NCBI GenBank assembly: GCA_023247085.1
Contig: JAHFHC010000004.1
Coordinates: 1 to 56,682, forward strand
Origin: Candidatus Micrarchaeota archaeon
GTDB taxonomy: Archaea > Micrarchaeota > Micrarchaeia > Norongarragalinales > UBA8480
DNA: 56,682 nucleotides
Direction of reading: 5' to 3'
Below, piece after piece: positions 336 to 13,846 of the stretch. Made by a program: the position numbers and the translations under genes. The notes below the pieces were generated by a model. That model ran no database searches. It was not told the DNA's origin and was given only the letters and a program-made list of their open reading frames with translations. Position 1 is the stretch's first letter. Every line of letters starts with the position of its first letter.

Positions 336-839
336 TTACTTCTTCGCAACTCGTTTGCCTAAATAGTGTAATTTGCCAAGGTGCATTGCAAAAGGCTTCC
401 GTTCATCATCTACTAATGCGCGCAGTACTTGGCCAACGAACATAACGTGATCGCCTAATTTTATGCACTTTACAACTTTGCACTCAGCGCTTAACACGCT
501 TCCGTTTATCAATGGCGGCGCAATGAACTTTGACGGCATTGTCTTGATGTTGAATTCTTTAAATTTATCAACTGTTTTCCCACTAACGTTTCCAACATAG
601 TGAGCAAGCGCCGCTTGGTCAATTGAACATAAATTTACTCCGAATTCAGAGCTTTCTTTCAACAAATCGTAAGTATAGTGCTTTGGATTTACAAATACGG
701 CAATGTAAAGTGGATCGTAAGACACGTTGAATGTCCACTCGCAAGCCATTACATTGCGCTTGCCTTTACTTGCAGTTGTCAGTAAACTAACCGTAGTGGT
801 GAAAAAACGTTTTGCGTGCTCAATATCTTCTTTAAGCAT
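336..839 (-). CDS. Flavin reductase family (flavoredoxin-like) protein
   Basis: Motifs NVMACEW, SYDPLYIAV, EFGVNL, G-SG-VDKF, ECKV and GDHVMFVGQV. ATG at 839 preferred over the ORF-track start at 887. Confidence 0.88.
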   Translation of the reverse strand: MLKEDIEHAKRFFTTTVSLLTTASKGKRNVMACEWTFNVSYDPLYIAVFVNPKHYTYDLLKESSEFGVNLCSIDQAALAHYVGNVSGKTVDKFKEFNIKTMPSKFIAPPLINGSVLSAECKVVKCIKLGDHVMFVGQVLRALVDDERKPFAMHLGKLHYLGKRVAKK

Positions 840-9376: not shown

Positions 9377-10099
9377 CTAAGGAATATCATTGGGATCAAA
9401 AACCTTCGGGACAACTGCACGCCGTTTTAACTGCGTTCTCGATAAATGAGACAAAACCTCTTCAAACTCAAGCGCAATTTCACTAGAGAATTTAGAAAGC
9501 GCTGCTTTAGTAATACGAGAATGCTGCAGATAATTTGGCTCTAATCCCGACCGAGCATATGAATCTGGATTGTTAATTGCAAAAAGCTTTAAACCACTAT
9601 TTCGAATTAAGTTACCTGAATAGAAAAATTCAACAACCAACTCGTTTGTTGGGCGAGCTAATGCGTGCTTCATAAAAAGACGATGCTCATGAATTTTAGA
9701 CGATTTAGCTAGCATATATTGCATTGCCTGCCTTTCTCTGAACATCGACCGCTGATCCGGCGAAGCATGAAAATTAACAACCGGAACAGAGAACCCCTTC
9801 TTTAACAAAAATTTAGCAATATCAATATCGGTCGGAGCATCATCTGCCCTTAATGAAGCTTCTCTAAGCGATTCTTCACGCCTAGCTGCCTTTTGCCAAA
9901 TCGCGTGAGGCGTCCACTTGCCTGGGATCCTTACAACAACCGCACTGTGCTTTTCCCAATCGCCGTGATGGCGCTGTGCAATGTTGATAGTTCCCTCGTT
10001 CGGGTGCCTTCCCACTAGTACAATTACCTTGCGCTTTTCCGCTGGAACTTCACGCAACATCAAATCCATTTCACGCAAGTTGCGCGGCTTTAAGATCAT
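9377..10099 (-). CDS. Hypothetical protein, possible degenerate M14/AstE-like zinc hydrolase
   Basis: VIVLVGRHPNE (HxxE) and VVNFHAS. The ORF could extend to 10156. Confidence 0.45.
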   Translation of the reverse strand: MILKPRNLREMDLMLREVPAEKRKVIVLVGRHPNEGTINIAQRHHGDWEKHSAVVVRIPGKWTPHAIWQKAARREESLREASLRADDAPTDIDIAKFLLKKGFSVPVVNFHASPDQRSMFRERQAMQYMLAKSSKIHEHRLFMKHALARPTNELVVEFFYSGNLIRNSGLKLFAINNPDSYARSGLEPNYLQHSRITKAALSKFSSEIALEFEEVLSHLSRTQLKRRAVVPKVFDPNDIP

Positions 10100-10195
10100 A
10101 AGGCAATATAATGCCGCGAGTAATTTTAATCCAACCGATAGCTTTAAATTATACACTCAGTAAAATTATACTATTAGTAAAATAAGGTGTTTTCG

Positions 10196-10411
10196 ATGGA
10201 AGAGATCAATGTAACTGCAAAACGTATTGGCAATTCTTGGGGAGTTATTATTCCAAAGAAAACTGCAGATAATTTAAACTTGAATAAAGAAACTGAGCTT
10301 CATGTGAACCTAGAGCGGGCGCCCGCTATAAAAGACCTCATTGGTACGTTTAAAGGTCGGGTTACTATCGAAGAGTTGAAAGCAGAAAGGAAGGCTGGCT
10401 GGAAAGAGTGA
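10196..10411 (+). CDS. AbrB/MazE/SpoVT-family antitoxin
   Basis: KRIGNSWGVIIPKK motif; AGGTG SD before ATG 10196; overlaps the PIN gene. Confidence 0.88.
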   Translation: MEEINVTAKRIGNSWGVIIPKKTADNLNLNKETELHVNLERAPAIKDLIGTFKGRVTIEELKAERKAGWKE

Positions 10412-10794
10412 ACCGCATGGTAGAATATGTTGTTGACACGTACGCCGCTATTGAATATCTTAACGGAAATAAGCAGTGCATAGCTAAGATCAATGGCGCT
10501 ACAAAAATTTATACTAACCAATTCATGTTAGCGGAGCTGTACTTCATAAGTTTGAAGAGAAACGGCGAGGAAATTGCAAACCGACACCTCGCGGCATTTT
10601 CAAGTCACTGCGAATCACTATATGAAACTGACATAAAAGAAGCTATGAAACTGCGCTTGAAATTAAAAAACCGGAAACTGGACATTTCCTATACTGACAG
10701 CATTGGTTATCATTTAGCTTTAAAGAAAAATATTAAATTCCTAACTGGCGACTCTGCTTTTGAGCAACTACCAAACGTAGAATTCATAAAATAA
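10408..10794 (+). CDS. vapC: PIN-domain toxin (VapC-like)
   Basis: VVDTYAAIE, LAE, SYTDSIG and LTGD acidic tetrad; GTGA overlap with the antitoxin. Confidence 0.9.
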   Translation: MNRMVEYVVDTYAAIEYLNGNKQCIAKINGATKIYTNQFMLAELYFISLKRNGEEIANRHLAAFSSHCESLYETDIKEAMKLRLKLKNRKLDISYTDSIGYHLALKKNIKFLTGDSAFEQLPNVEFIK

Positions 10795-10849: not shown

Positions 10850-10982
10850 GGGCTCATGATGTAACGGTAACATACCCCTTTGGCGTGGGGGAGACTCCGG
10901 GTTCGATAAGCCTTTTCTTTATACAAAAAGAAAAGCCTTTGGGAAAAGAAAATTCCCAGCTACGAAAATCCCGGTGAGTCCA
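10850..10982 (+). tRNA. trnA-GGC: tRNA-Ala(GGC) with a 61-nt intron in the T-loop (intron 10908-10968, position 59/60)
   Basis: Acceptor GGGCTCA/TGAGTCC has the G3:U70 Ala identity pair and A73. D arm ATGT/ACAT; anticodon GGC at 10882-10884; T stem CCGGG/CCCGG. Removing 10908-10968 restores the T-loop TTCGATT. Confidence 0.92.
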
Positions 10983-11081
10983 TACTTTTTTCTATTATAG
11001 AAAAAACTCATTAAGAATTACTTTTTACCGGCAAGCACGTGCTTAGAAAAGTTTACTAACCTAGATAAATTTAGAGTAAAT

Positions 11082-11747
11082 ATGCACACACTTATAAACA
11101 TTAACAAAACTTCTCCAGATTTTCTTGAATTTTTTGGAGTTTTAATGGGTGACGGATGTATTGTAAAATTTAAAAAACCGCCAAGCGATAGCGATTATCT
11201 TCGAATTTTCATAAGCGGAAACTCAAAAAGAGATTCTACCTACATGAAAAACTACTTGAATTTGATTCTGAAAAAATTTCAAGTGTATGCTTATTTTTAC
11301 CAAGATAAACATACAAACACAATAACTGCAGTAATAAACCACAAAAAATTTGCAGAGTATCTCGTAAGCTTAGGCTTTCCAACTGGCAAAAAAGGACAAA
11401 TTGAAATTCCAAGTTGGATTATGGCGCTTTCGTTAGAGAAGAAATTTCATTTAATTAGAGGCCTTTTTGACACAGATGGATGTATATCCGCGCGTAAATC
11501 TGAAGAATATCGAAGGCCTTTAGTGCTAATATCTAGCGAAAGTATACCACTAAGAAAACAATTAAAGACAATATTACGTGAAGCTGGATTACCAGCATAT
11601 GATTCAAGTGGAAACGTTGGAGTTGACGGCATAAGCAGCACAAAGAAGTGGTTTGAATTAATAGGAAGCAACAATCCTAGAAATTTAGACAGGTATACCG
11701 GGTGGGTTAGAACAGGCGCGCTACCTATGTTAGATATAAAAAAGTAA
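11082..11747 (+). CDS. Free-standing two-motif LAGLIDADG homing endonuclease
   Basis: Motif 1 FFGVLMGDGC and motif 2 LIRGLFDTDGC, both with the acidic catalytic position intact. No intein splicing termini. Confidence 0.9.
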   Translation: MHTLININKTSPDFLEFFGVLMGDGCIVKFKKPPSDSDYLRIFISGNSKRDSTYMKNYLNLILKKFQVYAYFYQDKHTNTITAVINHKKFAEYLVSLGFPTGKKGQIEIPSWIMALSLEKKFHLIRGLFDTDGCISARKSEEYRRPLVLISSESIPLRKQLKTILREAGLPAYDSSGNVGVDGISSTKKWFELIGSNNPRNLDRYTGWVRTGALPMLDIKK

Positions 11748-11772: not shown

Positions 11773-11844
11773 GGGCTTATAGTCGAGTGGTAAGATGTTC
11801 CCTTGACGTGGGAAAGATCCCCGGTTCGATTCCGGGTAAGCCCA
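11773..11844 (+). tRNA. trnV-GAC: tRNA-Val(GAC), intronless
   Basis: GGGCTTA/TAAGCCC acceptor, TTCCC-TTGACGT-GGGAA anticodon arm, CCCGG-TTCGATT-CCGGG T arm. Confidence 0.95.
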
Positions 11845-11860
11845 CTTTAAAATTAATCAA

Positions 11861-13774: not shown

Positions 13775-13821
13775 GGAGAAAAAAAATTTAGTCACGTTTC
13801 TTTTTGGCGCCACGCCTGGCA

Positions 13822-13846
13822 CCTTTTTCTTTAGAAAAGAAAAAGG
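13822..13846. terminator. Bidirectional hairpin between convergent DUF1858 and alba genes
   Basis: CCTTTTTCTTT-AGA-AAAGAAAAAGG, a perfect 11-bp stem. Confidence 0.5.

Follow-up and report, generated by a model that had tools for sequence, protein, structure and literature searches.

We identify a tRNA-Ala(GGC) gene with G3:U70 at positions 10850-10982 of the window (the entire 56,682-nt stretch of DNA that was analysed), in which a 61-nt insert (10908-10968) separates T-loop positions 59 and 60. In our assessment there is roughly a 90% probability that this insert is a protein-spliced intron with a relaxed splice motif, cut by a tRNA endonuclease (EndA) of the epsilon2 type and followed by exon joining by RtcB. 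The source genome is a Micrarchaeota MAG of the order Norongarragalinales, with 892 kb in 36 contigs, 40% G+C and 92% completeness. Read from its 5' end, the locus is GGGCTCA TG ATGT AACGGTA ACAT A CCCCT TTGGCGT GGGGG AGACT CCGGG TTCGAT (61 nt) T CCCGG TGAGTCC A. The 5' exon (10850-10907, + strand) runs through U59 and comprises the acceptor strand GGGCTCA with G3, the D-arm, the anticodon arm (GGC) and the 5' strand of the T-stem. The 3' exon (10969-10982, + strand) consists of U60, the T-stem strand CCCGG, the acceptor strand TGAGTCC, whose U70 pairs with G3 to form the alanine identity pair, and the discriminator A; CCA is not encoded in the gene. Just 3' of the gene lies a run of six T (10985-10990, + strand), which we take to be an archaeal oligo-T terminator from what is general in archaeal termination, and a U-rich/A-rich hairpin then follows. 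The coordinates and letters given in the preliminary description of this locus all proved correct when the sequence was read again.

That description had also held that standard scans often miss the gene, and both finders that we ran bear this out. Applied to the window, ARAGORN called the neighbouring tRNA-Val only and made no call at the unspliced tRNA-Ala(GGC) locus, which it missed again in a whole-genome run with the intron search on. Rfam yielded no tRNA match for the unspliced locus at the gathering score, and at a loose threshold the locus appears as a partial match of 25 bits against a gathering score of 29 bits. When positions 10908-10968 were excised in silico, ARAGORN called tRNA-Ala(ggc). 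As for an intact tRNA-Ala(GGC) elsewhere, which had been named at the outset as evidence that would speak against the intron, no second gene of this kind was found in the 92%-complete assembly.

To define the boundaries of the intron we used relatives, searching 60 related genomes and then reading the loci. In G001, a genome of the same genus, tRNA-Ala(GGC) has no intron (61.9 bits with the Rfam tRNA model), and its 5' and 3' exons are respectively 98% and 100% identical to those described here. Its junction reads ...CCGGGTTCGAT|TCCCGGTGAGTCCA, that is, TTCGAT|TCCCGG, and is the junction predicted for the excision of the 61 nt (TTCGAT|TCCCGGTGAGTCCA). Only the pair of cuts 10907|10908 and 10968|10969 reproduces the T-loop TTCGATT of G001, one-base-shifted cuts giving TTCGAAT or TTCGATA. 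The boundaries are exact, and a chance pattern would not account for such agreement. The empty site in G001 matches the boundaries that had been proposed from the window alone for an intron of 61 nt, placed at 59/60 and carrying a relaxed bulge-helix-loop motif, and the splice product TTCGATT is, as had been pointed out, the T-loop of the neighbouring tRNA-Val (11773-11845).

A second genome of the genus, G002, holds a positional orthologue in the same gene order (259-aa ORF, VapB, PIN, tRNA, LAGLIDADG), with a 63-nt intron at the identical site. The extra A that lies opposite AUA in the source genome is missing from this orthologue, so that GCT abuts CGAA and AUA becomes a strict 3-nt 5' bulge. 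Identity between both orthologues is 95-100% in the exons, 77% in the intron and 50-63% in the flanks, the pattern of conservation to be expected when the gene is functional and its intron is under constraint. Among the remoter genomes of the order, G005, G009, G011, G019 and G051 have a tRNA-Ala(GGC) without intron, and G028 and G049 have unrelated introns of ~36-37 nt at the same insertion site.

The MFE fold of positions 10850-10981, computed with ViennaRNA, contains the full cloverleaf, the splice motif and two intron hairpins, with an energy of -42.5 kcal/mol (z = -2.43); an equally good fold was obtained for 1 of 200 shuffled sequences. In this fold, the T-stem strand CCGGG (10897-10901, + strand) is the 5' strand of the outer helix h and pairs with 10970-10974, while U54, U55, C56 and G57 (10902-10905, + strand) form the 5' strand of the 4-bp central helix H, whose 3' strand CGAA (10963-10966, + strand) lies inside the intron. 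The 5' splice-site bulge AUA (10906-10908, + strand) has its predicted cut after U10907 and is relaxed to a 3x1 internal loop because A10962 stands opposite AUA; the 3' splice-site bulge AAU (10967-10969, + strand) has its predicted cut after A10968. The inner helix h' is formed by AGC (10909-10911, + strand) and GCU (10959-10961). Hairpin 1 of the intron (10912-10935, + strand) has a CUUUUCUUU / AAAGAAAAG stem with a 6-nt loop and is the signature of the intron family described below, its stem being kept in all 14 aligned copies with some compensatory changes. Hairpin 2 (10940-10958, + strand; UGGGAA / UUCCCA) encloses the conserved GGAAAAGAAAA motif. The geometry first read from the letters (a UUCG/CGAA helix, a 3-nt AAT bulge, ATA opposite A, an AGC/GCT closure and two hairpins) is reproduced throughout, and the modelled motif is of the relaxed hBH, or bulge-helix-loop, class.

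On paper, a 2-bp alternative pairing (U10907-A10962 and A10908-U10961, leaving single-base bulges) can be drawn on the 5' side, where there is no canonical 3-nt bulge, and a real intron with other boundaries or another fold would then imply another T-loop or another nuclease. We hold this to be highly improbable. MFE and centroid structures both pick the 3x1 internal loop, the strict bulge of the G002 orthologue stands in the identical register, the 3' bulge AA|U is almost invariant among the family introns, and the T-loop of the intronless allele is obtained with one pair of cuts only. Still further from the data, and practically negligible in our view, is a self-splicing intron of group I, group II or another ribozyme type. 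Archaeal group I introns have been reported, in a paper that also mentions Micrarchaeota (PMC6125680), but an element of 61 nt is far too short for this class, it folds into a BHB-type motif that uses the T-arm, and no intron family of Rfam matched it even at E <= 10. Group I and other catalogued RNAs were rejected as candidates at that same threshold of E <= 10, at which Rfam gave no match.

The predicted helices of the spliced motif were further assessed in a T-stem-anchored alignment of 23 T-loop-intron loci. The central helix is 88% paired in this set, five loci of which had been picked with a filter requiring that helix, and among the loci of the source genome that were picked by sequence alone the full 4-bp helix is found in 10 of 13. 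Covariation is seen at the pair 57:H3-1, which joins nucleotide 57 to the intron's first helix base (GC in 10 loci, AU in 6, GU in 1 and other combinations in 4). The outer helix is paired in 100% of the loci, with compensatory changes, these loci having been selected on that pairing.

A relaxed motif of this kind had been said to need an EndA of broad specificity, as in ARMAN archaea, and the host indeed encodes one that is homologous over its full length to such an enzyme. EndA matches a single locus (C26:3967-5039, - strand), where the Pfam domains are arranged N, N, C, C on one strand. The reference structure, PDB 4FZ2, is the epsilon2 EndA of ARMAN-2, for which residue roles were taken from Hirata et al. 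2012 (PMC3488258). The C half of the host protein aligns with residues 193-387 of 4FZ2 (E = 8e-83, about 70% identity) and its N half with residues 12-180 (E = 8.5e-43). In this alignment the equivalents of the catalytic triad Y236/H251/K282 and of the RNA-binding residues R275/W384 are all five conserved, and so is the specificity loop with K161 (GTYKAKKH in the host, GTYKVSEH at G158-H165 of 4FZ2). A run of N breaks the gene in the source assembly; we judge it an assembly gap because a near-identical MAG (99% identity; contig JAHFHN010000004.1, L035 934-2097) has the gene intact as one 387-aa ORF. Further EndA matches are in MAGs named Candidatus Micrarchaeota, Micrarchaeia and Norongarragalinales, one of them being a contig of G025, of the same order. 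On the strength of these alignments, the host EndA is classed as epsilon2, a single polypeptide of three units alphaN-alpha-betaC. The 3'-phosphate RNA ligase RtcB is also present, with a PF01139 match at C19:12028-13335 (572 bits, E = 2e-172).

With the gene, its boundaries, its fold, the type of its endonuclease and the ligase all observed, we infer that cleavage and ligation in the host organism would proceed as follows. In the precursor the T-stem would serve as the outer helix, and U54-G57 would pair with the CGAA at the 3' end of the intron as the 4-bp central helix. The three-unit epsilon2 EndA would cut after the second nucleotide of each bulge, on the 3' side within the 3-nt bulge AAU and on the 5' side within the 3x1 internal loop. 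Ligation of the exons by RtcB would then create the T-loop UUCGAUU, and the CCA-adding enzyme would complete the spliced tRNA. The 4-bp helix, the predicted cuts after the second bulge nucleotide and the predicted ligation by RtcB are shared with canonical hBHBh' introns at 37/38, from which this intron differs in its T-loop site, in a central helix whose exon strand is the universal T-loop UUCR instead of coming from the anticodon loop, and in the relaxation of the 5' bulge.

The tRNA-Ala(GGC) gene is one of many interrupted tRNA genes in this genome. In a census modelled on SPLITS, 357,800 BHB-like candidates were spliced singly and then as pairs or triples at anchors (3.7 million constructs), and the products were submitted to ARAGORN. 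Single removals recovered tRNAs for Ala(GGC), Ala(CGC), Gly(CCC), Arg(CCG), Tyr, Cys, Glu(UUC) and Val(CAC). The multi-intron part of the census is noisy because ARAGORN is permissive, and the tRNA counts are therefore lower bounds. T-loop introns were scanned for loosely at first, with 268 matches that are mostly due to chance; the tightened scan gave 24, about 16 of which are clearly in tRNAs. In at least 16 tRNA genes of the source genome an intron sits precisely between 59 and 60 and has AA|U as its 3' bulge. This site is also interrupted in tRNA-Ala(CGC) (C9), and tRNA-Ala(UGC) (C28) appears from its sequence to have an intron in the T-loop as well. Only 7 tRNA genes found in this 92%-complete genome are intron-free and only 11 Rfam tRNA matches lie above threshold, so that MAGs of this kind wrongly look tRNA-poor. 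Introns probably interrupt a considerably larger share of the tRNA genes than the 56% reported for ARMAN-2 (PMC3239211).

These numbers bear on the possibility that the locus is a tRNA pseudogene, its insert being an unspliced copy of a short palindromic repeat that is found between genes as well. The hairpin CUUUUCUUUU/AAAAGAAAAG is indeed not confined to tRNA bodies: it also follows tRNA-His, tRNA-Ala(UGC) and the EndA gene, with a weak occurrence at 13815-13846 of the window, and the insert is absent from the G001 copy. However, the locus is the sole GGC copy found, at least two of the three Ala isoacceptors (perhaps all three) are interrupted at 59/60, as are at least 16 tRNA genes, not all of which can be inactive, and a mere 7 tRNA genes of the genome have no intron. 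The single GGC copy, the T-loop introns of the other Ala genes and the scarcity of intron-free tRNAs make a pseudogene very unlikely. Against it stand, too, the conservation of the exons (95-100%) compared with the flanks (50-63%), the covariation of the central helix and the presence of a matching EndA and of RtcB. The boundaries show no target-site duplication and no terminal inverted repeats, and a transposon-type insertion was rejected on these same two grounds. We therefore retain the reading of a spliced tRNA-Ala(GGC) gene.

The intron belongs to a family of related sequences, which we searched for with BLAST, nhmmer and a covariance model (R1) built from 14 copies, the E-values being rough as a result of quick calibration. 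Against R1 the tRNA-Ala(GGC) intron scores 70.8 bits (E = 9e-13). The model matches 27 sites in the source genome and 16, 45 and 17 sites in three genomes of the same genus. Matches fall to 0-4 in other genera of the family and range from 10 to 42 in several other families of the order (37 in G013 and 42 in G021), so that the distribution is patchy; weak matches may be non-homologous, given the low complexity of the hairpin. Common to the copies are a U-tract/A-tract hairpin (CCUUUUCUUUU...AAAAGAAAAGG), the GGAAAAGAAAA motif and YGAAAA at the 3' end. Family matches are also found in introns of the anticodon region, the D-loop and the variable region, which have mainly the low-complexity hairpin in common. 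U-tract/A-tract hairpins resembling hairpin 1 are also seen just 3' of tRNA or protein genes, at 10983-11010 and 13815-13846 of the window and at C25:38456-38487 and C26:3841-3879 elsewhere in the genome. They may be terminator-like elements, or else a source or sink of the intron family.

Within the genus, similarity among these introns does not follow the genes that carry them. For the Ala(GGC) intron, identity is 93.4% with the Ala(CGC) intron of G003 and 90.6% with the T-loop intron of the tRNA-Gly(UCC) of its own genome, and it drops to 77% with its positional orthologue in G002 and to 70% with the Ala(CGC) intron of its own genome. The tRNA-Gly(UCC) gene (C28:14364-14500, - strand) has two introns, one of 57 nt at 37/38 and one of 64 nt in the T-loop, and its T-arm is that of tRNA-Ala; outside this identical T-arm, the exons of both genes are 56% identical. 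At the orthologous Ala(CGC) locus of the source genome and G003, the exons are 100% identical and the downstream 150 nt 91% identical, with introns that are 68% identical. On these comparisons, intron similarity does not track the host gene.

Presence and absence vary as well. The Ala(GGC) intron is found in the source genome and in G002 and is absent in G001. tRNA-Val(GAC) has no intron in the source genome (11773-11845) or in G001, and in G002 (C19, L006, ~380-720, reverse strand) it has a D-loop intron of ~130 nt and a family intron at 59/60. Taken together, both patterns show that intron presence varies in both directions within the genus. The comparisons suggest that family introns have been gained, lost and replaced within the genus, which is what has been termed intron transposition in Thermoproteales (PMC4033280; bioRxiv 10.64898/2026.10.13.758758). 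Some of the similarity could instead stem from gene conversion between genes whose T-arms are identical. A structural feature could account for portability: YGAA at the intron end pairs with UUCR of the universal T-loop and, with the T-stem as outer helix, any tRNA would complete the splice motif. Position 59/60 would in this manner be a universal landing site, one intron could settle in many tRNA types, and the concentration of introns at this hot spot would be explained. We see even odds for the proposal that the Ala(GGC) intron is a member of a portable BHB family of ~60 nt that is still spreading in Norongarragalinales Micrarchaeota.

Several genes surround the locus. Between tRNA-Ala and tRNA-Val, a free-standing LAGLIDADG_3 protein of 221 aa is encoded (window 11082-11747, + strand; Pfam E = 9.6e-9). 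The gene is present in a single copy in the source genome, versus at least 27 family introns, and its equivalent in G002 is in place with 74.5% identity. In G001, no LAGLIDADG gene lies between tRNA-Val and the intronless tRNA-Ala, the tRNAs being ~160 nt apart and in reversed order. The LAGLIDADG gene and the Ala intron thus co-occur in the source genome and G002 and are both absent in G001; this is effectively one shared event and is therefore not evidence for a link in mobility. Upstream, at 10187-10794 (+ strand) of the window, a VapB-like ORF of 74 aa overlaps a PIN-domain ORF (Pfam E = 6.3e-10), which ends 55 nt before the tRNA-Ala gene; the pair is kept in G002. Beyond it, the 259-aa ORF (window 9377-10156, - strand) has no Pfam match. 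A paralogue with 28% identity (C5:69910-70683) adjoins another tRNA with a T-loop family intron (C5:70810), which may be a coincidence.

The closest precedent is Candidatus Micrarchaeum acidiphilum ARMAN-2, whose pre-tRNA-Cys(GCA) has a relaxed hBH intron at 59/60 that is cut in vitro by the epsilon2 EndA, and in which 56% of tRNA genes are interrupted (Fujishima et al. 2011, PMC3239211). The present case shares with it the phylum, the 59/60 site, the class of relaxed motif and the epsilon2 enzyme. It differs in the host tRNA (Ala-GGC), in having a two-hairpin intron of 61 nt instead of 13 nt, and in that this intron is one copy of a multi-copy family. Efficient cleavage of a 61-nt, two-hairpin intron would be an extrapolation from the 13-nt substrate of ARMAN-2. 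Taken singly, an intron at 59/60 adds little to what ARMAN-2 has taught and is not surprising to a specialist.

Families of transposing tRNA introns are known from Thermoproteales (Sugahara 2008 and Fujishima 2010, as relayed in PMC4033280 and bioRxiv 10.64898/2026.10.13.758758). Both groups have related introns in different tRNA types, most tRNA genes interrupted and an EndA of broad specificity; recurrence at different positions, known from Thermoproteales, is possible for the present family too. Unlike Thermoproteales, which are Crenarchaeota with an alpha2beta2 enzyme, the host studied here is a DPANN micrarchaeon with an epsilon2 EndA, and its intron family is AT-rich, clusters at 59/60 and is built on a single conserved U-tract/A-tract hairpin. 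We found no description of a transposing tRNA-intron family in Micrarchaeota in the searchable literature.

For annotation, these observations mean that tRNA-Ala(GGC) and most other tRNAs of these genomes escape standard finders. In the intron family, a single site in a single genus presents gains, losses and replacements as a natural series, by which one could examine how protein-spliced introns are propagated and whether an endonuclease of broad specificity is what allows it. If the family is indeed still spreading, Micrarchaeota, with their convergently evolved epsilon2 EndA, would be, after Thermoproteales, a second group in which tRNA introns have transposed independently and on a large scale.
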